In this document: one piece after another, positions 1,869 through 46,065 of the stretch
Layout: each line of letters starts with the position of its first letter
Position numbering within the stretch: the first letter of the stretch is position 1
DNA from: Vicinamibacterales bacterium
GTDB taxonomy: Bacteria > Acidobacteriota > Vicinamibacteria > Vicinamibacterales > UBA8438
DNA length: 64,000 nt
Reading direction: 5' to 3'
Assembly (NCBI GenBank): GCA_965203565.1
Contig: OZ241896.1
Location: forward strand, 876,182-940,181
The notes under the pieces: model-generated
The model's input: the letters and a program-made list of their open reading frames with translations, nothing else
The model's database searches: none
What the model was told of the DNA's origin: nothing
Position numbers and translations under genes: made by a program

Positions 1869-1923
1869 GGGATCGGGAATTATAAGCGCCTGCGATGCCA
1901 GGCCGGACCGCTCCCGCACGTAG

Positions 1924-1954
1924 TCATTTCCAATTCAGAAATGAGCCTGAAGGC
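1924..1954 (-). repeat. 33-nt motif, copy L (inverted relative to copies at 5825-5891 and 45143-45176); possible IS terminal inverted repeat
   Basis: The reverse complement reads CCTTCAGGCTCATTTCTGAATTGGAAATGACTA. Compare CCCTTCAGGCTCATCTGTCGTTGGAAACAACCTC (5825) and CCGTTCAGGCTCATTTGTCGTTGGAAGAGACTC (5858). Confidence 0.55.
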
Positions 1955-2542
1955 GGGCGGTGATCCGCGCCTGTCAGGCGACCGAACCGACGGGTCGAAA
2001 AGGGGTTCGGCGCGGGCCGCGCTCCGGACGGCCCGACCAGGCGATTATCGCTCATCGTCGTGTGAGTGAGGTTGCCCCGATTCTGCGAACGGGTTGACGC
2101 TTTCGGGTTCAGCTCATGCCGTGGTTTTCGGTGGGAGCACCTCCATGATGCAAGCGCTGTGGACCTGTGGGAATCTCGCGGCCTCGGCGCCGGCTCGATC
2201 GCCAGCGGTCGCCCGCGAGATTTCCAACGGACTGTGGGCGCCCCGTATCCCCGATCTTCCGGATGCATCCCGCTGCGGACCGGGCGTCCATAGGCCGGGC
2301 AGGTCCACAGCGCCCGGCGGCGATACGGGGCGCGGTGTGCGGCCAGGCGGCCGGCCGGCGGTCGCAACACCCGGTCTGCTGGCCCTGTCAGGCAGCCGGG
2401 TCGAGGGAGCGAAACAGCCGCTCGCGCGCGAGGTTGAGGGCGCGCGCGGCCTCGTTGTCGCTGCGGGCCGTGGCGACAGCGTCGAGTGGGTCGAAGGTGG
2501 TTCCGGGCTTGAGGCAGGCGGCGGCGGCGGGCAGCGACTTGG

Positions 2543-2700
2543 CAGCCCGTGGTGGAATCCCGCGTCGCACCGAGAGCGGCGAGGCGCCCGCCTGACAAGG
2601 CGTGAGGAGGGCGCATATTGGGCATACGCAACCGACGAACAACGCCGTCAGGCGGGATGCATCGCTGCTCGAATGCAGCGGAGACTTTCACCACGGGCTG
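2543..2700 (+). mobile_element. 158-bp MITE, copy a (inserted in the transposase pseudogene C-terminal region)
   Basis: Termini CAGCCCGTGGTGG...CACCACGGGCTG. Flanking 4-nt repeats are TTGG (2539-2542) and TTGA (2701-2704). Removing the element plus one repeat (162 nt) joins ..TPYERL to KSLPAAA.. in frame. Confidence 0.85.
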
Positions 2701-3305
2701 TTGAGCCTCTCGTAGGGGGTCATGACGTCCGCGGGGCGATAGCGCTTGCGGATCCGGCCCTGGGCATCGACCTGTTCGCGGGGGAAGAAGCAGGGGCGGT
2801 GGAAGTTGAGGTAGGGGGAGAGGACCTGCTGGGTGAAGGCGTTGACCTGCTCGGCGTAGCGGCTGGGGATGTGGCCGTGGCCGAGATGCTTCCGGAGCAC
2901 GGAGCCGTTCTTTGCTCTCGACCAGCGCATTGTCGTTGAGGACCGGGAGCAGGCAGGCGGCGTGGATGCGCTCGACCGAGCCGATGCACTGGAACTGCGT
3001 GACTTCGTCCACCAGATTCAGATGGTGGAGGCCCTTGATGCCGTCCAAATCGCCCTGATGGACCGTATCGACCCGGACCCAGCCGGGCCGTCCGAACGGC
3101 TGCGGGCGGCGGCGTTCCCCAATCGCGACCTGCGCCGGGCGGGTCGGCTGAGGGATCGCCCCGCGGCGCCGGGCATAGGTCGTCGAGCGTCGCAGGTTGT
3201 ACAGGTGGCTGATCAACGACAATTATTTTGGCCGGTCGTCGAGTGGAAATGGCCACGTGAAAAGGGACCCCCCAGCTTCCGTCAACCGGTCAATCGATAG
3301 CTCAC

Positions 3306-3464
3306 CAGCCCGTGGTGGAAACCCCGCGTCGCACCGAGAGCGGCGAAGCGCCCGCCTGACAAGGCGTGAGGAGGGCGCATATTGGGCATACGCAACCGAC
3401 GAACAACGCAGTCAGGCGGGATGCATCGCTGCTCGAATGCAGCGGGGTCTTTCACCACGGGCTG
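3306..3464 (+). mobile_element. 159-bp MITE, copy b (nested inside the HNH element)
   Basis: Same termini as copy a. A perfect 4-nt flanking repeat TCAC lies at 3302-3305 and 3465-3468. Confidence 0.85.
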
Positions 3465-3713
3465 TCACACCGCTGCGCACGAGCACGCTGCGGGTGGTGC
3501 GGGCCTTTCACTTTTTTCGCAGAAAGTACTTGACAGGATTTTTGTCGTCCCCTGCCGGATCTTTGGAACAGCCCTCAGCATGCCCCTCCGGCGGCCTCAG
3601 CCGCCTTCTGAGAGCCGTACGCCCACCGGAAGGTCGAAAAGCATTGAACGGACCGGGAACGGCCGCCTGAGAGCCGTACAAGCGGCTGAAAAACAAGGGG
3701 TTATCATAGGCGC

Positions 3714-4946
3714 ATGCCCCTCGAAACCACACCGGTTCCGGCCCCGTTTTCGCCTTCCGTCCGCCCTGTCCTTCCTCCGACGGCGCGCACCGCTTCCATT
3801 CCGGACCAACCCGATGCCGATCTCAACCGGTTGGCCGACCGGATCGCCGAACTCTCCGCCCGCATCCAGGCCGCCACCTATGCTCTGCTCGTCCTCATCC
3901 AGCAGTTCGACGAGCAGGGCGGCTGGCGGCCGGGCGGCTTCTCCTCCTGCGCCCACTGGCTGAGCTGGCGCACCGGCCTCGCCCCCGGCGCCGCCCGTGA
4001 GAAGGTGCGCGTCGCCCACGCCCTGGCCAAGTTGCCGCTCATCGGCGCCGCGATGCTGGCGCACGACGCAGCGGCGGCGCAGGGGGCGGATCATCCGACG
4101 TACGTTCCCGCGGGAATGTCTTCGGTCGTCCGACCCACAGCAGCCGGCCGCGCTACGGCAATCCGCCAGCCGGGAAGCGACGACGCGGCAGGCATCGGCG
4201 ACCCGCAGGGTGCGGCTGGCGACTCGGTTGACTCGGCGCCGACGGACATCGTATCGACCGGAGGAGAGCACGTTCCCGCGGGAACGCGCCGGCCGACGGG
4301 AGGCTCCGACGGGTCACATCCCGACGCCGCTGCTCGCGTCGCGCATGGTCAGGCGGTGCTGGAGGACGCCGGCGGGCTGCGCGTCTCCGCGGAAACGGCG
4401 CGCCGGCTGGCGTGTGACGCCGGGCGGGTCGTCATGACCCACGGCGTGGCCGGGCAGGTGCTGGACGTCGGCCGGAAGACGCGCACGATCCCGCCGGCGC
4501 TCCGCCGTGCGCTCGCCGCGCGGGATCGGCGTTGCCGCTTCCCAGGTTGCACGGCCCGGCGGTGCGATGCGCATCACGTCCGGCACTGGGCGCACGGCGG
4601 CGCGACCCGGCTCGACAACCTGGTGCAGCTCTGCCGGCGGCATCACCGGGCCGTGCATGAAGGCGGATTGCGGGTGATGCTCGACGACGCAGGCGCGGTC
4701 CGCTTCACGCGGGCGGACGGCCGGCCGCTGCCGGAGGTTCCGGAACCACCGCGCTGGACGGGGGCGGCGCTGGCGCCGGTGGACGCGCGGCTGGCGGCGG
4801 CGGGGATCGCGATCGGGCCAGGTGCGGCGATGCCGGCGTGGACCGGGGAGCGGCTGGATCTCGGCTGGGCGATGCGCGTGCTGTGGCGTCCGCGCGCGAG
4901 TCCGGCCGGGGCCGCGTCGGACGGGCCGCCGCCTCCGCCGGCGTGA
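3714..4946 (+). CDS. HNH endonuclease, DUF222/13E12-repeat-like (410 aa; central region low-complexity, possibly degenerate)
   Basis: ORF track 3714..4946. The N-terminus (LADRIAELSARIQAATYALLVLIQQFDEQGGWRPGGFSSCAHWLSWRTGLAPGAAREKVRVAHALAKLP) is typical of DUF222. The C-terminus carries LDVGRKTRTIPPALRRALAARDRRCRFPGCTARRCDAHHVRHWAHGGATRLDNLVQLCRRHHRAVH (HNH). Confidence 0.8.
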   Translation: MPLETTPVPAPFSPSVRPVLPPTARTASIPDQPDADLNRLADRIAELSARIQAATYALLVLIQQFDEQGGWRPGGFSSCAHWLSWRTGLAPGAAREKVRVAHALAKLPLIGAAMLAHDAAAAQGADHPTYVPAGMSSVVRPTAAGRATAIRQPGSDDAAGIGDPQGAAGDSVDSAPTDIVSTGGEHVPAGTRRPTGGSDGSHPDAAARVAHGQAVLEDAGGLRVSAETARRLACDAGRVVMTHGVAGQVLDVGRKTRTIPPALRRALAARDRRCRFPGCTARRCDAHHVRHWAHGGATRLDNLVQLCRRHHRAVHEGGLRVMLDDAGAVRFTRADGRPLPEVPEPPRWTGAALAPVDARLAAAGIAIGPGAAMPAWTGERLDLGWAMRVLWRPRASPAGAASDGPPPPPA

Positions 4947-5658
4947 CGCAGTGGTGGGACCGGCGCTGCTCGTCCGCGCGCGGAGGGACCGACGTTTCCG
5001 CCGCCGCCGCCCGTGCCCCGCGGGCGCGCCCCCGGCCCGCTGCTGCCCCGAACTCGCCGCTGGCCGCCCTCGTGACCCCCGGACGGTGTCCGCGAGCCGA
5101 GCAGCCGATCTCAATCCATGGTGAGCTGAACCGGCCAGAATAATTGTCGCCAAGCGGCCAAAGTAGTTGACGCTGAACAGGTGGCCGTTGGAGATCCGGG
5201 CCAGGCGCTCGAAGCGGCCGTCGCCGAACAGGCGCCAGGCGCGCGCACAAAGGGCGCGCGTGGCCGGGCCGGACAGCGTGCCGTGCAGCGCGTCCGTCTC
5301 GGCCAGCAACCCGATGTCGGCGCGGGTGTAGCGGCGGGCGAACGGCCGGCGCGGAGCGCCGCGCCGGTCGGTGACCGCGCCGGTGGTCCGGTGTTGGCGC
5401 AGCAGGCGGGTGACCTGCGCCCGTGACAGACCGGTCGCCCGGCTCAGAAAGCGGCGCAGCAGGCCCTTGTCGGGCTTCCCGCACAGGGCGTAGTCGAACC
5501 GTTGCACGGTCGTGGCCACCAACGCGCAGGCGTCGGCGCGGCGGTGCGGTTGCAGGGCGATCCCCGCGCTTCCGGCCAGGAACTCCCGAACCTGATCCAG
5601 GGTCTGCAGGCGGTGCGTGTCGAGTCTCACGATCATCCTCCGATGATCCGCGACTCGG

Positions 5659-5816
5659 CAGCCCGTGGTGGAATCCCGCGTCGCACCGAGAGCGGCGAGG
5701 CGCCCGCCTGACAAGGCGTGAGGAGGGCGCATATTGGGCATACGCAACCGACGAACAACGCCGTCAGGCGGGATGCATCGCTGCTCGAATGCAGCGGAGA
5801 CTTTCACCACGGGCTG
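5659..5816 (+). mobile_element. 158-bp MITE, copy c (between the transposase start and the putative IS end)
   Basis: Nearly identical to copy a. A perfect flanking repeat TCGG lies at 5655-5658 and 5817-5820. Confidence 0.85.
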
Positions 5817-5824
5817 TCGGCCCC

Positions 5825-5891
5825 CCCTTCAGGCTCATCTGTCGTTGGAAACAACCTCCCGTTCAGGCTCATTTGTCGTTGGAAGAGACTC
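5825..5891 (+). repeat. Two tandem copies of the 33-nt motif (R1 5825-5857, R2 5858-5891); possible duplicated IS right end
   Basis: Read directly. They are inverted relative to copy L at 1924-1954, and together they bracket the transposase pseudogene. Confidence 0.55.
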
Positions 5892-5895
5892 ACGT

Positions 5896-5924
5896 TTGAC
5901 CAGCCGATGGCCGCCTACTAGAAT
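5896..5924 (+). promoter_or_regulatory. Sigma70-like promoter for gap operon: TTGACC-N17-TAGAAT
   Basis: TTGACC at 5896-5901, a 17-nt spacer, then TAGAAT at 5919-5924. It lies 67 nt upstream of the gap ATG and immediately follows motif copy R2. Confidence 0.55.
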
Positions 5925-5990
5925 GAAGCGTTTGTGCGCGCCGTCCGCGCGCACGCACAGGAGGCGCCACTTTTTCCGGAGGCGGCAGGC

Positions 5991-6989
5991 ATGTCGATCA
6001 GGGTCGGGATCAACGGGTTCGGCCGCATCGGACGCAACGTGCTGCGGGCGGCGCTCGACGACGACGCGCTCGAGTTCGCGGCGGTGAACGACGTCGCCAG
6101 CCCGGAGACGCTCGCCCACCTGCTGAAGTACGACTCGGTGCTCGGCAACCTGCCCGACGACGTCTCGGTGGACGGCGACGCGATCCGGGTCGGCCGGCGC
6201 TCGTTCAAGGTGCTGCGCCAGCGCGACCCGGCCGCCCTGCCGTGGGGCGACCTCGGCGTGGAGGTCGTGGTCGAATCGACGGGACTGTTCACCAGGCGGG
6301 ACGCCGCCGCCGGGCATCTGGCGGCGGGCGCCCGGAAGGTCGTCGTCACCGCGCCGGCGAAAGACCCGGACCTGACCGTGGTGCTCGGCGTCAACGACGA
6401 CGCCTACGACCCCGCGGCGCATCGGATCGTCTCGAACGCGTCGTGCACCACGAACTGTCTCGCCCCGGTCGCCAAGGTGCTGCACGACGCCTTCGGGCTC
6501 CGCCGCGGGTGGATGACGACGGTGCACGCCTACACGAACGACCAGCGGCTGCTCGACCTCCCGCACAGCGATCTGCGGCGCGCGCGCGCCGCCGCCGTGT
6601 CGATGATCCCGACCACCACCGGCGCCGCGGCGGCCGTCGGCGAGGTGCTGCCGGAGCTCAGGGGCAAGCTCGACGGGATCGCGATGCGCGTCCCGACCCC
6701 CAACGTGTCGGTGGTCGACCTCGTCGCCCAGATCGAGCGTCCCGCGGCCGCGGAGGCGGTGAATCAGGCGTTCGCCGCCGCCGAGGCCGGGCGGATGAAG
6801 GGGATCCTCCACCTGTCGCACGACCCGCTGGTCTCCATCGACTTCCGCGGCGACCCCCATTCGTCGATCGTGGACGCCGCGTACACGCGGGTGATGGACG
6901 GCGACTTCGTCAAGGTCCTCTCCTGGTACGACAACGAGTGGGGATACTCGTCCCGGTGCGTCGATCTCGTGAAGATCCTCGGAGCTTGA
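5991..6989 (+). CDS. gap: Glyceraldehyde-3-phosphate dehydrogenase
   Basis: [22 protein letters not shown]..., [12 protein letters not shown] active site, [14 protein letters not shown] lies 9 nt upstream of ATG 5991 (in frame within track ORF 5934..6989). Confidence 0.93.
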
Positions 6990-7000
6990 CGGCCCGTGGC

Positions 7001-8194
7001 GTGTCCAGGCAGTCGATCCGCGATCTCGACCTGACGGGCAAGCGCGTCCTGATCCGCGTCGACTTCAACGTCCCGATCGCGGACGGCAAGGTCGGCGACG
7101 ACACGCGGATGCGATCGGCGCTGCCCACGCTCCGGTACGCGCTCGGCCGCGGCGCGACGCTCGTGCTCGCATCGCACCTCGGCCGTCCGCAGGGACGGCC
7201 GCAGGCCGCTCTCAGTCTGCGGCCGGTGGCGGACCATCTGTCGGCGCTGCTGGACAGGCCGGTCCGCTTCGCCGCCGACTGCGTGGGCGAGCCGGCGCGC
7301 CGCGCCGTCGCCGCGGCCGGGCCGGGCGGCGTGGCGCTGCTGGAGAACCTGCGGTTCCACGCCGAAGAAGAACGGAACGACCCGGCGTTCGCGGCGGCCC
7401 TCGCGGCGCTCGCGGACGTGTACGTGAACGACGCGTTCGGCGCCGCGCACCGCGCCCACGCCTCGACCGCCGGCGTGGTCGCCCACGTCCGGGACGCCGG
7501 GACCGGACTGCTGATGGACGCCGAGCTGGAGCATCTCGGGTCGCTGCTCGCCGATCCCGCCCGGCCGTTCGTCGCGATCCTCGGGGGCGCGAAGGTGTCC
7601 GGGAAGCTCGACGTCATCGAGAACCTGATCGAGCGCGTCGACGCGCTGCTCGTCGGCGGCGCGATGGCGTACACGTTCCTCCGCCGACGCGGCCTGCCGA
7701 CCGGAGGTTCGCTGGTCGAGCCCGAACTGCTCGACGCGACGCGGCGGGTCGAGGAAGGGGCGCAGGCCCGCGGCGTGGATCTGCAACTGCCGTCCGACCA
7801 CGTCGTGGCGGACCGGATCGAGGCCGGCTCGCCTTGCGAGACGCTGGCCGTGACGGACGCCGCGATCGGCGGCCGGGCGGGCGTGGACGTCGGACCGCGC
7901 ACGCGCGCCGACTACGCCGCCGCTGTCGCGCGGGCGCGCACGGTGGTGTGGAACGGTCCGATGGGGGTGTTCGAGATCGATGCGTTCGCGGCGGGGACGA
8001 TGGCCGTCGCGCGCGCGGTCGCCGAAACGCCGGCGCGGACCGTCGTCGGCGGCGGCGACTCGATCGCCGCCGTCGCCAGGGCCGGCGTGCGGGACCGCAT
8101 CACGCACGTGTCGACCGGCGGGGGCGCGGCGCTGGAGCTGCTCGGCGGGCGGACGCTCCCGGGCGTCGCCGCCCTGCCCGCCCGACGTCGCTGA
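7001..8194 (+). CDS. pgk: Phosphoglycerate kinase
   Basis: Tail of track ORF 6242..8194: VSRQSIRDLDLTGKRVLIRVDFNVP...ASHLGRP...LLENLRFH...GGGDS. The start is GTG 7001; an in-frame TTG at 6986 is also possible. Confidence 0.9.
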   Translation: MSRQSIRDLDLTGKRVLIRVDFNVPIADGKVGDDTRMRSALPTLRYALGRGATLVLASHLGRPQGRPQAALSLRPVADHLSALLDRPVRFAADCVGEPARRAVAAAGPGGVALLENLRFHAEEERNDPAFAAALAALADVYVNDAFGAAHRAHASTAGVVAHVRDAGTGLLMDAELEHLGSLLADPARPFVAILGGAKVSGKLDVIENLIERVDALLVGGAMAYTFLRRRGLPTGGSLVEPELLDATRRVEEGAQARGVDLQLPSDHVVADRIEAGSPCETLAVTDAAIGGRAGVDVGPRTRADYAAAVARARTVVWNGPMGVFEIDAFAAGTMAVARAVAETPARTVVGGGDSIAAVARAGVRDRITHVSTGGGAALELLGGRTLPGVAALPARRR

Positions 8195-8218
8195 CGCCGC
8201 CGCGCGGAGGGAAACGGC

Positions 8219-8986
8219 ATGAGGACGCCTTTCGTCGCCGCCAACTGGAAGATGCACAAGACGGTGCGCGAGGCGCTGGTCTGGGCCGAGACGTTCCGCC
8301 GGCGCATCGAAGCCGTGCGCGGCGTGGAGATCGTGGCGGCGCCGCCGTTCACGGCGCTGCACGCGGTGGCGGCGGCGCTCCGGGGCAGCGCAGTCGGCGT
8401 GGCCGGCCAGGACCTGCATACCGAGCCCGAGGGCGCCTTCACCGGCGCAGTGAGCGGCGGCATGCTGAAGGAGGCCGGGGCCGACTACGTGATCGTCGGG
8501 CACTCGGAGCGCCGGCGGCTCTTCGGCGAAACGGATGCGGCCGTCAACGCGAAAGTGCGCGCCGCGATCGGCGCACGGCTCGTCCCGATCCTGTGCGTCG
8601 GGGAAACGCTGGCCGAGCGCGACGCGGGGAGGACGTTCGAGGTGCTGGACCGGCAGATCGGCGCCGGCCTGGCGAACCTGTCCGCGGCGGAGGCCGAAAC
8701 GCTCGTGGTGGCGTACGAGCCGGTCTGGGCGATCGGCTCCGGCCGCAACGCCGCGCCCGGCCAGGCGCAGGCGGCGCACGCGCACGTCCGGCGACGCCTG
8801 GCCGGGACGCTCGGGGAGGCGAGCGCCGCCGCGCGGCGGATCATCTACGGCGGCAGCGTCAAGCCCGCCAACGCCGGAGCGCTCTCGGCGCAAGCGGACG
8901 TGGACGGCGCCCTGGTCGGCGGCGCGGGCCTCGACGCCGGCGGCTTCGCCGAAATCGTGGCGAGCAGCCGCGCCGCAGCGGTATAA
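8219..8986 (+). CDS. tpiA: Triosephosphate isomerase
   Basis: MRTPFVAANWKMHKT..., GHSERR, AYEPVWAIGSG, YGGSV. Confidence 0.93.
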   Translation: MRTPFVAANWKMHKTVREALVWAETFRRRIEAVRGVEIVAAPPFTALHAVAAALRGSAVGVAGQDLHTEPEGAFTGAVSGGMLKEAGADYVIVGHSERRRLFGETDAAVNAKVRAAIGARLVPILCVGETLAERDAGRTFEVLDRQIGAGLANLSAAEAETLVVAYEPVWAIGSGRNAAPGQAQAAHAHVRRRLAGTLGEASAAARRIIYGGSVKPANAGALSAQADVDGALVGGAGLDAGGFAEIVASSRAAAV

Positions 8987-8995
8987 TCGTCAGCC

Positions 8996-9355
8996 ATGTT
9001 GAGCATCGTCCTGTCGGCGCTGTACGTGCTGGCCTGCCTGCTGCTGGTGGTGGTGGTCCTGCTGCAGCAGGGCAAGGGCGGGGACATCGCCGCCGCCTTC
9101 GGCGGCAGCGGCAGCCAGGCGGCGTTCGGAGCCCGCGCCGGCGCGACGGTGCTGACGCGCGCCACCACCGTGCTCGGCGCCGTCTTCATGGTCGGCGCGA
9201 TGGTGCTCGCCATCATGGGCCAGCGCGGTCCGGCGTCGCTCCTCAGCGGCGTCGAGGGGGCCGACCCGCCGGCCGGCGCGGCGGAGACCGCGCCGGCGGA
9301 GACGGCTCCCGCGGACGCGGCGCCGGCCGGGGAACCGTCGGAAGCGCCCCGGTAG
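8996..9355 (+). CDS. secG: Preprotein translocase subunit SecG
   Basis: LLVVVVLLQQGKGGDIAAAFGGSGSQAAFGARAGATVLTRATTVLGAVFM is typical SecG. The gene sits in the conserved tpiA-secG-tRNA-Leu context. Confidence 0.85.
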   Translation: MLSIVLSALYVLACLLLVVVVLLQQGKGGDIAAAFGGSGSQAAFGARAGATVLTRATTVLGAVFMVGAMVLAIMGQRGPASLLSGVEGADPPAGAAETAPAETAPADAAPAGEPSEAPR

Positions 9356-9376: not shown

Positions 9377-9463
9377 GCGGAAGTGGCGGAACCGGCAGAC
9401 GCGCCAGCTTGAGGGGCTGGTGGTGGCGACACCGTGGGGGTTCGAATCCCCCCTTCCGCACCA
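9377..9463 (+). tRNA. tRNA-Leu (anticodon GAG), type II with long variable arm, encoded CCA
   Basis: Acceptor stem GCGGAAG/CTTCCGC. Anticodon stem CCAGC/GCTGG with loop TTGAGGG (GAG, G37). Variable arm TGGTGGCGACACCGT. T arm GGGGG-TTCGAAT-CCCCC, then A-CCA. Confidence 0.9.
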
Positions 9464-31866: not shown

Positions 31867-32891
31867 CAGCCGCCCTGCTCGACGGATGCCGGCGGGTCGC
31901 CGCCGCCCCGGCCGTCGTGGCCGGCGCCTGGCTGACGACGCTGCTGGCCGCGGCGCCGTTCGCCGCCGCGCTGCACGGCGAGATCGCCGAGCACCTCGGC
32001 GCCAGCGTGGCCGGGGAGCGGATGGCCGCCGGCGTCGACCGGGTCTGGTGGGACGAGTTCGGCGCGGACGCCGGCGGACTCGGGAAGACGTTCACCCCGA
32101 CGGTCATCGGGTTCGCCGCGCCGCTGAGCAACCTGAGCGCCTTCGTCGACGGCGAAGGTCCGCCGCTCGCGCTCGTGACCGCCGTCGTCGGCTACCTCGC
32201 CGTCTGGACCTTCCTCGCCGGCGGGCTGCTCGACCGGCTCGCGCGCGCGCGCCGCGTCGCCGGTCCGGCGTTCTTCGCGGCGTGCGGCGCGCACTTCTTC
32301 CGGTTCTGCCGCCTCGCCGTCTTCGCCGGCCTGATCTACTGGGCGCTGTTCGATCTGCTGCACGACTGGCTGTTCGACGATCTGTACGCCGCCGCGGTCC
32401 GCGACGTCACCGTCGAGCGCACAGGGTTCCTCTGGCGGCTGGGGGCGTACGCCCTGTTCGGCGCCGTCCTGCTCCCCGTCAACCTGGTGTTCGACTACGC
32501 GAGGATACGCACCGTGGTGGAGGACCGCCGCAGCGCGATAGGCGCGCTCCTCGCGGCGTGGCGCTTCGTGCGCCGCCGGCCGGGCGCGACGGCCGGGCTG
32601 TACGGCCTGAACGCGGGGCTGTTCCTGCTCGTCCTGCTCGTCTACGCCGCCGTCGCGCCGAGCGCCGGCGCGCCGACCTGGGCGGCCCTGCTCGCCGGCC
32701 AGGCGTACGTGGCGGCGCGCGCCGGGGCCAAGCTGATCTTCTACGCGTCGCAGACCGCCTACTTCCAGAGCCAGCTCGCCCACGCCGGCTACGTGGCGGC
32801 GCCGCTCCCCGCCCGGCCGGAGTCGCCGGCGGCGGAGGCGATCACCGGGTCGGGGGGTGGAGGGGCTTCGGTCGGGGGCCGTTTCATCTGA
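31863..32891 (+). CDS. Polytopic membrane protein, unknown function
   Basis: GTG 31863 overlaps the peptidase stop (GTGA). This is the tail of track ORF 30354..32891, with several hydrophobic spans. Confidence 0.5.
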   Translation: MTAALLDGCRRVAAAPAVVAGAWLTTLLAAAPFAAALHGEIAEHLGASVAGERMAAGVDRVWWDEFGADAGGLGKTFTPTVIGFAAPLSNLSAFVDGEGPPLALVTAVVGYLAVWTFLAGGLLDRLARARRVAGPAFFAACGAHFFRFCRLAVFAGLIYWALFDLLHDWLFDDLYAAAVRDVTVERTGFLWRLGAYALFGAVLLPVNLVFDYARIRTVVEDRRSAIGALLAAWRFVRRRPGATAGLYGLNAGLFLLVLLVYAAVAPSAGAPTWAALLAGQAYVAARAGAKLIFYASQTAYFQSQLAHAGYVAAPLPARPESPAAEAITGSGGGGASVGGRFI

Positions 32892-32914
32892 GGCGCACAC
32901 CGCTTTCGAAGACG

Positions 32915-33640
32915 TCAACGACCGGACGCGCCATTCGCGACGGCCTCCGAGATGTGAGATCGAAGCCGCGCCTCCATGTTTTCCTTGCCGATCTCCCTCA
33001 TTGAAGCGTCGAAGCGCTCGTCGCCGACCAAAGTGAAAAATCTCGGCCCGAGGCGCCCGGCCGTACTTCGCAAGCCCAACTCCTCGATTCCAGAGGCCAG
33101 GATCGCATTCCTGACGGCCTGAGTGAGCCTGCTGAGAGGTCCGACGTTCTCCGGGGACACCGAGCCGACGAAAACGTAGCGCTTTTCGACCTTCGGACGC
33201 ATGTCGAGCACTTCGTCAACGCAAGCCTTGACGTCGCGCCCCGACCGTCTGCGGAGCTGAACGACCTGTCGAACCTCCTTGCTGCTGAGACCGTCAGCAA
33301 GCACCGCCTCGGCGACGGCGCGTTGATCGCAGGCATCCTCCAGTCTCGCCAGCTCGACGGCCGACGTGAAGCCGACGAAGCTTCTTCCCGAACCCCAATC
33401 GACCCGGCGGCGGATATCATCGGGCAGATCCAGAACGCGCAGAAACCGCCCGATGCACCCGGAGTCAATCTGAACGGCCTTCGCGCACTCCTTCAGCGAA
33501 ATACTTTCCGCGCACGCCTTCCGAAGAAGTGAGCCTACTTCGATCGGTGACAGAGGACGGTTTTTCTTGTGGGTTCCGTAGCCCACGGACATGCGCAGTC
33601 TTCCAAGCTCAAGGGCGCTCAAACCGACTGGCGTTCGCAT
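32915..33640 (-). CDS. ParB-type HTH DNA-binding protein lacking the N-terminal ParB/Srx domain
   Basis: Strong SD (GGGAGGAAG) before ATG 33640. PLSPIEVGSLLRKACAESISLKECAKAVQIDSGCIGRFLRVLDLPDDIRRRV...LSSKEVRQVV aligns by eye with the ParB HTH/LSxRExE segment. No GxxRxxA box lies upstream. Confidence 0.6.
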   Translation of the reverse strand: MRTPVGLSALELGRLRMSVGYGTHKKNRPLSPIEVGSLLRKACAESISLKECAKAVQIDSGCIGRFLRVLDLPDDIRRRVDWGSGRSFVGFTSAVELARLEDACDQRAVAEAVLADGLSSKEVRQVVQLRRRSGRDVKACVDEVLDMRPKVEKRYVFVGSVSPENVGPLSRLTQAVRNAILASGIEELGLRSTAGRLGPRFFTLVGDERFDASMREIGKENMEARLRSHISEAVANGASGR

Positions 33641-33720
33641 CTTCCTCCCTGGCGAACCGCTGGAATGCCGCGCGCGTGTCTTGCGTCACCGGCGCGATGA
33701 TCTGTACCATCTTCACGAAC

Positions 33721-33999
33721 ATGGAGCATGGACGCACCAGCGAACTGTTGCGGCTCACTTTCACGCCGTCGCAATGGGCGGCCATTCAGCGGCAGCTTGA
33801 CGCCGCCCGCTGCAACCGCCATACCGCATGGCTGGCGGACGACATCCAATCCGCGCTGGCGATTGGTCAAGAGTTCCCTCGCCGTTGCTCCGTCGCCGGT
33901 TGCGGCAGCCGGAATCTCATCAAGTTCGCCCGGATGGACGGCGAGAATACAGTCAGGGCGTTTTGCTCCGCATGCGCGCGGGTCGAGTTCGGGCGATAG
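33721..33999 (+). CDS. Small RHH-like + zinc-ribbon protein (hypothetical regulator)
   Basis: MEHGRTSELLRLTFTPSQWAAIQRQLDAA (strand-helix typical of RHH), then CSVAGC...CSAC. No clear SD; the alternative ATG at 33697 is possible. Confidence 0.35.
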   Translation: MEHGRTSELLRLTFTPSQWAAIQRQLDAARCNRHTAWLADDIQSALAIGQEFPRRCSVAGCGSRNLIKFARMDGENTVRAFCSACARVEFGR

Positions 34000-34026
34000 G
34001 TGCAACGACCGCAAGCAGAAACGCCA

Positions 34027-35793
34027 TCAATAGGCCGGGCGCAAGTACCGTTCGCCGCTCCACTCCGGAACCTGCTGGTTCTGTTTCAGACGCATCCGCT
34101 GAACTTGCAGGGCCGAGTAGCAGTTGTCCAGATCAGCCACGGGCTGCACGACGCCCGGCAGGCTCGCCGACGCCTCCAGCGTGAAACGGTCGGCTATCGG
34201 TTGCTGCATGGCGTCCCGGTACGCAGCTTTCCACCAATTCAGAATTCGGTCCTGCGCGAAACGCAGCAACCGATCGGCGGGCAGCCGGTCGCGTTTCTCG
34301 TTTTGATTGACCGCTCGGTGGGCGGGCATCAGGTTCCAGAGATCCCCGCACGGCCAGATCGTCCACGGAAAGCAATGATCGATGTCGAGAGCGCCTTCCG
34401 ACAGCCGCTTGCCGCTCCACACGCAATGGAGAGGGCCTGCAGCGAGCAGACGTTCCGCCTGCGCCCGTGCGATGCTCACGTCGCGCGTCGGCTCCGACCA
34501 GGTCATGGCGGCCGCCATCCGGGCATCGTCTATCGAGCGGCCCTGCCGCTCGCCGTACGATTTCATCAACCGAACCCACTCCGCGATCAATGCGGGTTCT
34601 ATCCAGGCGCTGAAGCGTTGAACAGCCGCCCACAGGCGCTCGGGCACATGCATCGAACCGAAGCTGGCGAGGTATTCCTCGTCCAGTCTGACATGCGCGG
34701 GCCGGCCGGCGGCAGGTCTGTTCGTCGGACCGTGAACGGAGAGGATCGGCCGTGCGCTGTTGGGGTAGGTCATATATCGTGCGGGCATCGTCGCGATGGT
34801 CCGGGATGCGTCCTTGACGGCTTGATGGAGTGCGGCGGCGGCGGTTCCGGAGAACTGCATGCCGACCCGAAGATCGTGGTCTGACGTCGCGTCGAGCTTC
34901 CGGAAGGCGCTCTTGGCGAAGCCCAAGCGGTCGTAGCCGCGGTTGGTCGGGCTCTGAGGCAGGTCCGCACGCAGCAACGGCTTGTAGAGGCGAATCCACG
35001 TCAGGGCGACCAACCCCATCGGTACGGCGATCTGGTCGCCGTCGTCCGCCTGCGAAAGGCCTGCGGCTCCGTCCGCAATGCGGCAGAGCACGCGGAGCAG
35101 CGCCAGCTTGTAAGTGGAGTTCTTGTCGTCGTTGAGCGTGACGTGACGGAGCAGCGGCAACGCCCCGGCGCCGTCGTCCGGCAGACGGACGGCGATCTGC
35201 GTCCAGCGGATCTCGCGCCTGCCCGCCGCGTCGTCGTTCATAGTCTCGCGTTCGATGAACGCTCCGTGGTCCCGGGCGAGCTTCCGGATCTCCTCGGCGG
35301 ACACCGAATGGAATCCGCGTCCTTCTTCGGCCGGACCGCGCTTCAGCGTGACTGCGAGAAGACCGCCCGGCTTGAGGATGGTCATCAGCTTCCGGAACGC
35401 CCTTGCCCGGTCGGTGGGCGCGACATGCATCCAGACTGCGCTGAGCAGGATGACGTCGAAGGAGAGGCCGCTCCGGAACGTGCGTGCGAGAGCGGGCAGC
35501 GAATCGGCGATCCACTGGATCGGACGCTCCGCATGCCGTTCTCGGGCCATTACCAGCATGCGGGACGCCGGTTCGACCGCTACGACTTCGTACCCCCTGT
35601 CCGACAGCCACGCCGCATCGCGGCCGCTGCCGGCGCCTACGTCAAGGATGGCCGCTGGCGCGGACGGCAGAAGGTCGGTCAGCCAGCCGTGCACTCGCTC
35701 GGACGACACTGCTTCGTATCGTTCCGATATCCGACCGGCGTTGGCGTCGTACCAGGATGTCGTCGCGGCCATGCCAGGCTCGTGTGGAGCCAT
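34027..35793 (-). CDS. Fusion protein: class-I SAM methyltransferase + helical/winged-helix-like middle region + C-terminal HNH nuclease
   Basis: Single 588-aa ORF. ILDVGAGSGRDAAWL, ILLSAVWMHV and LKPGGLL indicate an MTase. STYKLALLRVLCRIADG...LYKPLL forms the middle region. LDIDHCFPWTIWPCGDLWNLMPAHRAVNQNEKRD (aa ~468-502, nt ~34280-34430) is the HNH motif. Confidence 0.75.
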   Translation of the reverse strand: MAPHEPGMAATTSWYDANAGRISERYEAVSSERVHGWLTDLLPSAPAAILDVGAGSGRDAAWLSDRGYEVVAVEPASRMLVMARERHAERPIQWIADSLPALARTFRSGLSFDVILLSAVWMHVAPTDRARAFRKLMTILKPGGLLAVTLKRGPAEEGRGFHSVSAEEIRKLARDHGAFIERETMNDDAAGRREIRWTQIAVRLPDDGAGALPLLRHVTLNDDKNSTYKLALLRVLCRIADGAAGLSQADDGDQIAVPMGLVALTWIRLYKPLLRADLPQSPTNRGYDRLGFAKSAFRKLDATSDHDLRVGMQFSGTAAAALHQAVKDASRTIATMPARYMTYPNSARPILSVHGPTNRPAAGRPAHVRLDEEYLASFGSMHVPERLWAAVQRFSAWIEPALIAEWVRLMKSYGERQGRSIDDARMAAAMTWSEPTRDVSIARAQAERLLAAGPLHCVWSGKRLSEGALDIDHCFPWTIWPCGDLWNLMPAHRAVNQNEKRDRLPADRLLRFAQDRILNWWKAAYRDAMQQPIADRFTLEASASLPGVVQPVADLDNCYSALQVQRMRLKQNQQVPEWSGERYLRPAY

Positions 35794-35883
35794 GGCATCG
35801 TAGGTGCTTCCGTCAGCCGCGTCAACAATTGCGGGGATCGGATTTCCACCGAGAGTCGTTCGACGGTCGATGTACCCGTTTGG

Positions 35884-37038
35884 TCATGTGAAAACCGCTT
35901 CCGGTTCGATACCCACCGCGGCCAGCAGGGCGAGTCGGCCGGCCTCGCAGATGCGGTCCTTCCGCCAGATGTCTTCGATCATCTCCATCTCTCCCAGGAG
36001 CAGGAGCGTTTCGCCGATCTGCTCTTCCAGATTCCTCAGCCGGTCGAGGATCTTTTGCCGGACCTCCAGCGTGAACGGACCGAACACCCGCGTTCCGTCG
36101 TCTCGGCGCTTCGCCCTCCCGTCGCGGCGGACGGGGAGGCGGTTGCGGTTGTCCTCGCGCAGCTCCAGCAGCCACTCCCGGAAGTCGGCCAGCGCCTCCA
36201 GCTTGTCTTCGTCCTCGTGGCCGGCGTCGATCAGGCCGCGCATGCTCTTGTCCTTCTGCACGACGGTGCAGGTCCAGCAGCCGAAGCGGGGCGACGTGGT
36301 TCCGCAGGAAGGGGCGTCCTCCTTGCTCAGCACCAGCGGGCATTCGCCGCCGCCGGCGTTGCGGTAGAGCGTCATCAGGTCGCGGTGCGAACCGCCCCAC
36401 GGCGGCCGGCGCTGCATCAGGATCTTCCAGACGTCGTCGTCGCCCAGGTCGGCGAGCGGCGCGAACATGCGGCAGTGCTCTATCGCGTCGTGCGGGTTCA
36501 TCCCGGTCGCGGTGACGCCGCGCCGGTCCATCGCGCGCCCCCGATGTTGCGACTCGCTCCGGCGCGTGCCGATCAGCAGCACGGCGCGGCCGTGGGTCAG
36601 GACCAGCCGTTCGATCAGGCGGTTGGTCGGGAGGATCTTCATCCGGTCGGTGCACCAGCGGAAGTTGCGCGTCGGGGGGATGTACCCCCGGCCGATCACG
36701 TTGACCCAGAACGTCTGGTCGATGCACGGCTCGGTGATCTTCACGGTGACCGGCAGACCGGCGGCGCGGGCGGCGGCGCGGATGACGTCGAGACTCCGCC
36801 GCAGGTGGCCGATGACCAGCGGCGATTCGACCAGGGTGTCGTTGGAGACGACGTAGATCGGCCGGCGGCGCTCGGATCCGGCCGCCGCCGCGGCCTCCCA
36901 GACGAGCTGCAGGAGGAGCGTCGAATCCTTGCCGCCGGAATAGGCGACGATCCAGGGCTCGGCGTCGTCCCGGGTGAACTCGGTCCGGATCGTGTCGCGG
37001 ACCGCGGCCAGGCGTGCCGGCAGATCGCTGATGCTCAT
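35884..37038 (-). CDS. dndC: DndC/SspD-family PP-loop ATP pyrophosphatase (DNA phosphorothioation sulfurtransferase-like)
   Basis: [17 protein letters not shown] (PP-loop), [33 protein letters not shown] cysteine cluster. The start overlaps the dndA stop by 4 nt. Confidence 0.8.
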
Positions 37039-42675: not shown

Positions 42676-42833
42676 CAGCCCGTGGCGGAGGTCCCCGCTG
42701 CATTCGAGCGGCGATGCATCCCGCCTGACTGCGTTGTTCGTCGGTTGCGTATGCCCAATATGCGCCCTCCTCACGCCTTGTCAGCCGGGCGCCTCACCGC
42801 TCTCGGCGCGACGCGGGACTCCACCACGGGCTG
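42676..42833 (-). mobile_element. 158-bp MITE, copy d (reverse orientation), 49 nt upstream of the ABC-F start
   Basis: The reverse complement aligns over its full length with copies a-c and e. The flanks are TCGA (42672-42675) and TCCGA (42834-42838). Confidence 0.8.
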
Positions 42834-44337: not shown

Positions 44338-45129
44338 ATGGACGCCGCCGGCCGCAACGTTCGCCCGTTCCTGGCCGCCGCGCTGCTGCTGGCGCATTCC
44401 GCCCAGGCGCAGCCGTCCGGCCGGGGGCCGGACGCAGCCGTGGGCGGGGTCGTCGAGCAGCAGGTGCTCCTCGTCGAGCAGGCGCTCGAGCAGGCGGTGA
44501 GCCGCGGCGTGACCGCCGTGGAGCAGCGGTTCCCGTCCGTGCCGCCCGGACTGCTCTTCTTCGCCGGGTCGATCCGGGCCCGCGGGTTCGTCCTGGACGA
44601 TTACGGCCTGTTCTTCGACGTCGAGCATCCGGTGGTGCGGCGGAGCATCGTGTGGTCCATGCGCGTCCTCGACCGGCTCGACGCCGACCGGGCGCATGCG
44701 CTGGCGGGCGTTCGGCGCCGGATGCTCGCGCGGCCGGACGTCCCCGGCCGGGCGGTCCGGCGCGCCGCGGAGCAGCGGGCCCGGATGGCCTCGGCCGACC
44801 CGGTCCCGGCCGCTTCCGCCGACCGGCCGGCGATCCCGCCGGGCGGCGCGCCGCCGGTTCCCCAGGCTGCGGATCCGGAAGCGCTCTACCGCGCTGCGCT
44901 CGCGAACGCCCTGACGGACGCGCTGATCCGATACGGCGGATCGATGCAGGCGGGGGCGCTCGGCGGCGTCGAATGGGTGACGGTCGCCGCGCGGGACGGC
45001 CGCGGCCTCGGCGTGCGTCCGGGCGACCGGCGCACGTTGCAGATCCGGGTCCGGGGCGACGACCTCACCGCCCTCCGCGGCGGCCGCATCTCCCCGGAAG
45101 AGGCGCAGGCCCGCATCGAGACCCGATGA
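44338..45129 (+). CDS. Secreted hypothetical protein, third gene of ECF operon
   Basis: MDAAGRNVRPFLAAALLLAHSAQAQ signal. No recognisable domain. Confidence 0.5.
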   Translation: MDAAGRNVRPFLAAALLLAHSAQAQPSGRGPDAAVGGVVEQQVLLVEQALEQAVSRGVTAVEQRFPSVPPGLLFFAGSIRARGFVLDDYGLFFDVEHPVVRRSIVWSMRVLDRLDADRAHALAGVRRRMLARPDVPGRAVRRAAEQRARMASADPVPAASADRPAIPPGGAPPVPQAADPEALYRAALANALTDALIRYGGSMQAGALGGVEWVTVAARDGRGLGVRPGDRRTLQIRVRGDDLTALRGGRISPEEAQARIETR

Positions 45130-45142
45130 TCCGCGACACGGT

Positions 45143-45176
45143 CCCGTTCAGGCTCATCTGCCGTTGGAAGAGACTC
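45143..45176 (+). repeat. Solo copy (S) of the 33-nt motif
   Basis: CCCGTTCAGGCTCATCTGCCGTTGGAAGAGACTC is nearly identical to R2 (5858-5891). It is followed by TTGACG (45183-45188)-N18-TATCGT. Confidence 0.6.
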
Positions 45177-45810: not shown

Positions 45811-45967
45811 CAGCCCGTGGTGGAACCCCGCGTCGCGCCGAGAGCGGTGAGGCGCCCGGCTGACAAGGCGTGAGGAGGGCGCATATTGGGCATACGCAAC
45901 CGACGAACAACGCCGTCAGGCGGGATGCATCGCCGCTCGAATGCAGCGGGGCTTTCACCACGGGCTG
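45811..45967 (+). mobile_element. 157-bp MITE, copy e, ~100 nt upstream of the giant gene start
   Basis: A perfect flanking repeat TTCA lies at 45807-45810 and 45968-45971. Confidence 0.85.
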
Positions 45968-46011: not shown

Positions 46012-46065
46012 GGACGCTGACGCCTCGCCGCCGACCGCCGCCCCGTGCCGTCGCCTCTTCAGCCC

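Follow-up and report, generated by a model that had tools for sequence, protein, structure and literature searches.

The window analysed here, a stretch of 64,000 nucleotides from contig OZ241896.1 of a Vicinamibacterales bacterium (GenBank assembly GCA_965203565.1, positions 876,182 to 940,181 of the forward strand), holds five short and nearly identical repeats, three of them lodged in a decayed insertion sequence (IS), one in the spacer between an ABC-F gene and an ECF sigma-factor gene, and one upstream of a giant gene. Our analyses support, with high confidence, the view that these repeats are copies of a small parasitic DNA transposon of the MITE type (for miniature inverted-repeat transposable element) found in soil Acidobacteria, and that its most likely mover is a transposase akin to IS1182 whose gene lies elsewhere. 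We observed insertion with duplication of 4 bp, presence/absence polymorphism, and termini, target-site duplication (TSD) length and target that are common to an IS and its deletion derivatives. A first-pass annotation, made from the sequence alone, had reported five copies of 157-159 bp, all of which were matched in position and strand by alignment:

2543-2700, plus strand: copy a, within a pseudogenised rve-type transposase gene; flanks TTGG (2539-2542) and TTGA (2701-2704)
3306-3464, plus strand: copy b, 159 bp; perfect TCAC/TCAC flanks; within a 1,968-bp insert, where it precedes a co-oriented DUF222-HNH gene by 250 nt
5659-5816, plus strand: copy c; perfect TCGG/TCGG flanks; in the left-end region of the rve-type IS
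42676-42833, minus strand: copy d; in the divergent spacer between the ABC-F and ECF sigma-factor genes; imperfect flanks TCGA/TCCGA
45811-45967, plus strand: copy e, 157 bp; perfect TTCA/TTCA flanks; about 77 nt upstream of the co-oriented giant gene (46045 onwards)

Copies a-e align over their full length and their flanks do not align. Pairwise identity among them is 92.5-96.2%, with a and c 100% identical. The window contains a 31-nt core exactly five times, with none expected, and a profile search of the window (nhmmer) returned no copies beyond the five. The copies end in CAGCCCGTGGTGG...CCACCACGGGCTG (also given as CAGCCCGTGGTG...CACCACGGGCTG), and both these termini and the 4-nt flanks listed above came out on rechecking as first annotated. 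Each element consists of two arms of about 55 bp, around 80% complementary, which surround a 48-bp core. The imperfect palindrome noticed initially corresponds to a fold of the whole element as one hairpin, of -97.5 and -93.4 kcal/mol on the two strands (z = -8.8 and -8.1 against shuffles). Copy c lies 16 nt upstream of the Shine-Dalgarno sequence of the rve IS gene and 117 nt upstream of gap, while copy d lies 48 nt from the ABC-F start, in the same orientation as that gene.

The mobility of the element was demonstrated directly by three independent empty sites, those of copies a, c and d. Copy a splits a decayed, minus-strand rve-type transposase gene, and the frame was said to be restored (..TPYERL-) by excising it with one repeat; indeed, removal of copy a and one flank repeat yields ..MTPYERLKSLPAAAACLKPG.., with a junction between MTPYERL and KSLP that is gap-free against intact transposases in a seven-way alignment (partners of 414-416 aa). 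The DNA of one homologous gene (P0002; L052) is unbroken at the same site (...GAGAAGCTCCAGTCGCTG...). Similarly, the site of copy c is uninterrupted in four intact IS copies of another genome (L053-L056), which read GGGGGCCGGGTCGCGGATCATCGG / GGGGGCCGGGTCGCGG, where the window reads GGGGGCCGA, 158 bp, CCGAGTCGCGGATCATCGG (or GGCCGA, MITE, CCGAGTCGCGG), that is, an insertion with duplicated TCGG. Copy d is present in a same-species contig (L060, ABC-F gene 99% identical). A relative of 82% identity (L061) lacks it in the orthologous spacer between the ABC-F and sigma-factor genes, where both sides are conserved. Together with the survey of target duplications given below and the identity of a and c, these empty sites bear out the proposal of an active or recently active non-autonomous element that makes 4-bp duplications. 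The presence of three copies inside 3.3 kb, two of them identical, would also suit local duplication or gene conversion in an IS graveyard in place of transposition, but this origin is extremely unlikely: the 4-bp duplication differs from copy to copy and the flanks are unrelated, copies d and e lie 40 kb off, homologous copies occupy unrelated loci in many genomes, and the empty sites are precise.

Further copies, whose existence the first-pass annotation had suggested checking, were found in other genomes. A first scan, covering one genome per species and based on a 22-nt core word, identified 10 loci in 8 metagenome-assembled genomes (MAGs), all from Vicinamibacterales, Vicinamibacteria or Acidobacteria, with one or two loci per genome. 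A second scan, of metagenomes and based on a right-arm pattern independent of the core, identified 41 further loci, two of them likely due to chance, with copies on about 37 metagenome contigs. A subsequent profile search recovered 36 full-length copies of 152-197 nt, 34 of them with distinct flanks; 29 full-length copies lie beyond the five of the window, all of them in Vicinamibacterales-type Acidobacteria from two public collections. No MITE match was obtained in plasmid and phage collections, and the right-arm pattern had no match in IMG/VR.

The 4-bp duplications persist when flanks are examined over these 34 copies. A perfect 4-nt direct repeat flanks 14 copies (permuted left/right pairs match perfectly in 9.7%), the flanks agree at three or more of the four positions in 23, and perfect repeats of 5-8 nt occur in none of the 34. 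Eleven copies have CTAG as their left flank and five have CCAG; the consensus is C-Y-R-G, and CTAG is the preferred target. Non-palindromic repeats (TCAC, TCGG, TTCA, GTGG, CTGG) indicate that the duplication is one of 4 bp, and not of TA within a longer inverted repeat. CTAG is strongly depleted in the window: base composition predicts 165 sites and a first-order model 48, and 5 are present, of which three coincide with stop codons (19626, 24685, 29787) and one (5918) lies within the gap promoter. The distance to a gene end is 0 for 6 of the 34 copies, and the target preference thus steers insertions to gene ends. The family includes size variants: some have additional small hairpins in one or the other arm, some (L007, L012, L013, L025) an insert of 85 nt, and others are reduced to mini-forms of 52-80 nt (L018, L054/L057). 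A 5'-truncated copy (L023, around 298-374) begins in the core at TATTCGACCGAG and yet has CTAG on both sides; it may reflect a chance deletion or hint at an unusual insertion route.

The element shows every defining feature of a prokaryotic MITE, being small, non-coding and bounded by terminal inverted repeats (TIRs), with a fixed TSD, dispersed polymorphic copies and a matching IS; its 152-197 bp compare with a size criterion of below about 300-500 bp without coding capacity. No MITE family described in Acidobacteria was found in the searchable literature. Correia elements of Neisseria, ERIC/IRU of enterobacteria and Nezha of cyanobacteria are hairpin MITEs of 100-250 bp that have TIRs, encode no protein and lie mostly between genes (see also the review PMC10969869). 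TA is duplicated by Correia and Nezha, and some MITEs of these types carry promoter elements or affect the expression of neighbours. The element described here is likewise small, TIR-bounded, non-coding, mostly intergenic and able to form a long hairpin, but it has no sequence relationship to them, and TSD, partner family and host phylum differ. In Rfam, the only match in the window at the gathering threshold was the tRNA at 9377-9460, and in E-value mode two variants of the element hit only plant miRNA-precursor hairpins, with 15-31 bits against gathering thresholds of 70-268.

Repetitive extragenic palindromic (REP) sequences carry GTAG/CGTC tags, make no target duplication and are linked to RAYT transposases. 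Like REPs and the mosaic elements built from them (BIMEs), the MITE is palindromic, repeated and extragenic; unlike them, it is 158 bp long and has 4-bp TSDs, no GTAG/CGTC tag and a DDE-type partner. Palindromic elements derived from IS200/IS605 (PATEs) have no TSD, insert 3' of a fixed tetra- or pentanucleotide and have asymmetric hairpin ends; the MITE differs from them in that its left flanks vary and recur at the right and its ends are symmetric. REPs are 20-40 bp long (PMC3733652), a length that 158 bp far exceeds. A long imperfect palindrome that folds on both strands and is mostly intergenic is what would be expected of a REP/BIME or PATE moved as single-stranded DNA by a Y1/RAYT transposase. 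This identity is nevertheless most improbable, because Y1 transposition duplicates nothing and needs a fixed 5' target, while variable 4-bp duplications are found here at both ends, and a DDE-type IS has the same termini, TSD and target; no Y1/RAYT gene was seen beside any copy, though neighbours were not systematically screened. Accordingly, neither a known Rfam family nor the REP/BIME type, which the first-pass annotation had named as findings that would contradict its reading, accounts for the repeats.

A likely autonomous IS with matching termini, also suggested as a search at the outset, was found outside the window in a related metagenome. A 596-bp element that adjoins the host IS (L054, 9289-9884) has the ends CAGCCCGTGGAAGAAGTC and GACTTTACCACGGGCTG, CCAG/CCAG flanks and a 141-aa DDE transposase fragment, whose homologues led to a full IS of 1,488 bp on a metagenome contig (L058, 2058-3545). 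This IS has the termini CAGCCTGTGGCAAAAGTC...GACTTCTTCCACGGGCTG (CAGCCYGTGG..AAAGTC), CTAG/CTAG flanks, inverted repeats (IRs) of about 18 bp and two overlapping open reading frames (ORFs), which one frameshift repair joins into a single 459-aa protein with the Pfam domains DUF772 (PF05598), DDE_Tnp_1 (PF01609) and DDE_Tnp_1_6 (PF13751). A second deletion derivative of 776 bp was identified (L059, 136-911), and one contig (L046) holds both an IS end and the MITE. The right end of the MITE, reverse-complemented (CAGCCCGTGGTGAAAGTC), equals the left end of the IS (CAGCCCGTGGTAAAAGTC) at 17 of 18 positions, and the likeness of the MITE end to the right end of the IS extends over about 30 nt; only the outermost 18 bp or so of the MITE (CAGCCCGTGG-YR-AAAGTC) match the inverted repeats of the IS. 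The IS and its two deletion derivatives, with the same termini, TSD length and CTAG-type target, further strengthen the MITE reading of the initial annotation. Because it has termini, duplication length and target in common with the MITE, this IS lineage is the likeliest supplier of the transposase, and its IS1182-like enzyme would be the one that moves the MITE in trans.

The IS5 group makes a 4-bp duplication at YTAR/CTAG targets, and the partner IS resembles it in TSD length, CTAG-type target and a related transposase superfamily (DUF772 + DDE_Tnp_1); in contrast, IS5 models score under the IS1182 model, and the termini here begin with CAG and not with GG/GA. Within the IS1182 family, ISPse1 of Paracoccus seriniphilus has 1,653 bp, 16-bp IRs and a 4-bp direct repeat (PMC3281130, Table 2). 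The partner IS is alike in its 1,488 bp, IRs of about 18 bp, 4-bp duplication and DUF772 + DDE transposase, whereas the MITE is non-coding and its arms stretch the inverted repeat to about 55 bp.

Several observations weigh against the reading of the repeats as a MITE moved by an IS1182-like transposase. The duplications of copies a and d are imperfect, and the targets of the window copies are all non-CTAG (TTGA, TCAC, TCGG, TCGA, TTCA), so that all five used second-choice target sites. No copy of the partner IS lies within the 64-kb window, and the internal 120 nt or so of the MITE are unrelated to the IS, from which it follows that the MITE is not a simple deletion derivative. The sole full-length IS recovered carries the transposase frameshift mentioned above, which may be a long-read homopolymer error. 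Finally, the best NCBIfam model for the transposase, IS1182 (NF033551), scores 184 bits (E = 3.7e-54), under its curated cut-off of 270, and the transposase is consequently described as closest to IS1182, a family of the IS5 superfamily, and not as a member; the second-best model, IS5_4, scores 104 bits against a cut-off of 140.

In the mechanism that we propose, a transposase supplied in trans would bind both termini and integrate the element at a target that it opens by cuts staggered by 4 nt; repair of the stagger would give rise to the 4-bp duplication. The long complementary arms might help to bring the ends together, or might be homogenised by repair when folded as a hairpin. A motif in the core, CTGACA-16-CATATT, would transcribe outward, which would explain the tendency of retained copies to face the downstream gene.

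Two other candidates for the partner were rejected. The rve-type IS has ends (AGTCTCTTCCAACGACAGATGAGCCTGAA, repeated, with a 5-bp TSD) unrelated to those of the MITE and merely hosts copies a, b and c. An IS66-family element beside mini-copies (L054, L057) is not bounded by MITE termini, and the mini-MITE lies inside the repeated unit. In this mini-MITE of about 80 nt (L054, 7233-7303; L057, 3662-3739), the left terminus CCGCCCGTGG is fused directly to the right half, and its location within a repeated unit bearing an IS66-family transposase gene indicates that it was copied along with that IS. The 18-nt terminus CAGCCCGTGGTGAAAGTC was found in 7 viral contigs of IMG/VR, in at least three of which it starts unrelated elements, the rest being chance-like. 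The elements of unrelated interior that it starts, at L062 (5048, minus strand), L063 (9902, plus strand) and L068 (14275, minus strand), are preceded by TAG or TGG, and those of L063 and L068 are the same element with different flanks. The terminus family thus seems wider than the MITE.

We examined the conservation of the hairpin on 33 distinct copies, whose consensus fold comprises 47 pairs with 95.6% of cells paired. Changes on both sides were found in 22 pairs, against 8.0 +/- 1.7 in column shuffles (0 of 500 reach 22) and 5-11 in structures slid by 1-3 columns. Among the core pairs, that of columns 86-143 occurs as U:A (16 copies) or C:G (15) and that of columns 89-140 as G:C (18) or C:G (11); these covarying pairs flank conserved tandem G.A/A.G positions. 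Compensatory changes beyond those of shuffles indicate that complementarity is actively kept, and the compensatory stem differences noted among the window copies are confirmed on the 33. The accompanying claim that G:T pairs are tolerated only in the forward-strand RNA was not upheld. In pairs derived from the plus strand, G:U and A:C number 119 and 23, and in pairs derived from the minus strand 17 and 153; the forward-strand asymmetry is an artefact of method, mirrored once the minus strand is folded likewise, and with symmetric treatment wobble-type mismatches number 125 (plus) and 165 (minus) in the union of pairs, and 11 and 11 in their intersection.

Covariation of this kind is compatible with selection at the RNA level or with causes at the DNA level, such as synapsis of the ends helped by foldback or repair in an extruded hairpin, and cannot tell between them. 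From the structured RNA suggested in the first-pass annotation, the pairing stands, kept by covariation, and a strand bias that would point to RNA over DNA does not. That the element acts as a structured RNA, for instance as a hairpin that stabilises or processes mRNAs and is kept by selection on forward-strand folding, seems to us quite unlikely. The excess of compensatory pairing, the covarying core pairs beside the tandem G.A/A.G positions and a somewhat better alignment fold on the plus strand (-38.4 vs -26.4 kcal/mol) would agree with such a role. However, wobble pairs have no strand bias when both strands are handled alike, a genuine internal promoter would lead to transcription of the right arm alone, the genes that follow the copies have unrelated functions (HNH, GAPDH, ABC-F, giant protein), no Rfam relative exists among the matches above, and intrastrand hairpin repair or end synapsis can also keep the arms complementary.

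The core motif CTGACA-16-CATATT is sigma-70-like and lies in the window as follows:

2592-2619, plus strand: motif in copy a, same offset as in copy c
3356-3383, plus strand: motif in copy b, same offset
5708-5735, plus strand: motif in copy c, located in its core and directed outward across the right arm; a 9/12 consensus match only
42757-42784, minus strand: motif in copy d, directed at the ABC-F gene
45860-45887, plus strand: motif in copy e, same offset

Each of the five window copies has it at offset 50/51, where shuffles of these GC-rich regions lead one to expect 0.0 such sites. Overall, it is present in 20 of the 34 copies, never on the reverse strand. Using a gene caller based on G+C content at third codon positions (GC3), the element and the gene downstream of it run in the same direction in 20 cases and in opposite directions in 8, with a ratio of 13:3 for motif-bearing copies and 7:5 for the remaining ones, and the upstream gene has no orientation bias (14:13). 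In the window, four copies face the next gene, namely b (HNH), c (gap), d (ABC-F) and e (the giant gene). As a consensus match, the motif, together with the orientation bias, suggests an outward promoter. The earlier idea that the element alters 5' regions is thus plausible, since the promoter-like motif and the orientation bias fit it, and unproven.

It is possible, if on balance doubtful, that the MITE has in addition been co-opted, its outward core promoter making it a mobile promoter or 5'-untranslated-region module of which selection retains the facing copies. The constant orientation of the motif, the co-orientation of downstream but not upstream genes, and a core that is the most conserved non-terminal part of the element all point in this direction. 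They have to be set against a motif that is a consensus match only, with promoter rules assumed for Acidobacteria, and that loses the last T of its -10 box in divergent subfamilies; against gene calls from a home-made GC3-based caller and samples that are small and partly related; and against a core conservation that is inflated by ascertainment, because the first collection scan demanded the core 22-mer. Besides that, a better promoter belonging to gap itself lies between copy c and that gene, a strong sigma-70-type match TTGACC-17-TAGAAT (10/12) at 5896-5924, between the IS end and the gap-pgk-tpi-secG operon (5934-9355). The broader proposal of a mobile regulatory cassette of Vicinamibacterales, with an outward-firing core promoter, arms under selection and copies retained facing downstream genes, appears rather unlikely.

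A second regulatory suggestion concerned GGAGGG-N6-TTG, said to be present in each copy and to donate a translation start. The motif is indeed present in all five window copies and is not kept across the family, where 21 of 33 copies keep TTG and only about half keep GGAGGG. ORFs that start from it have GC3 values of 0.56-0.65, against 0.83-0.94 in real genes, and are non-coding by this measure. A donated translation start was rejected on both grounds, non-conservation and GC3.

The MITE, read as an element most likely mobilised by an IS1182-like transposase, is an ordinary kind of mobile element, well supported, and leaves the current understanding of transposition unchanged. Vicinamibacterales, abundant and mostly uncultured soil Acidobacteria, gain with it a defined MITE family, with termini, a target rule and a likely IS1182-like partner. 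The element accounts for several annotation problems of the window, where it creates spurious ORFs, splits a transposase gene and inflates intergenic spacers, is usable as a strain-level marker of insertion polymorphism, and constitutes a useful case of a target preference steering insertions to gene ends. Should the promoter and orientation signal be true, it would be a further example of promoter dispersal by a MITE.

The decayed IS that hosts three of the copies, and the insert that it carries, are delimited as follows:

1923-5890, minus strand: decayed rve-type (PF00665) IS, host of copies a, b and c; 5-bp duplication CACGT (1918-1922 and 5891-5895)
3210-5177: 1,968-bp insert in the rve transposase gene; perfect 8-bp duplication CAGGTGGC (3202-3209 and 5178-5185)

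The ends of the rve IS are AGTC..TTCC, and its left end has two 23-nt repeats, TTCCAACGACAGATGAGCCTGAA. Its transposase gene lacks 47 internal codons and is frameshifted, and the IS contains three nested insertions, namely MITE copies a and c and the 1,968-bp insert; the intact copies in another genome (L053-L056) have 5-bp TSDs. An NCBIfam scan of the host rve transposase returned no family. The 1,968-bp insert has inverted repeats of about 27 nt, with the motif doubled at the right end, and contains a DUF222-HNH endonuclease gene (3714-4946) and MITE copy b, with no recognisable transposase; it may represent a second kind of non-autonomous mobile element. A lone end motif of the rve IS (CCCGTTCAGGCTCATCTGCCGTTGGAAGAGACTCT) at 45140-45175, right after a gene ending at 45129, is a solo IS end or remnant.

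Of two giant repeat-rich genes, one is on the minus strand and ends near 1919, and the other starts near 46045 and, with at least 5,985 codons, runs off the window. Long homopolymers of C16 (1798-1813) and C17 (45995-46011) are each located just upstream of, or at, the 5' end of one of these genes, and may be phase-variation switches acting by slipped-strand mispairing. Finally, the stretch 32000-36000 has a lower G+C content (65-68%, vs about 72-75% elsewhere), with no confident GC3-type gene calls at about 32.9-35.9 kb, and may be foreign DNA.

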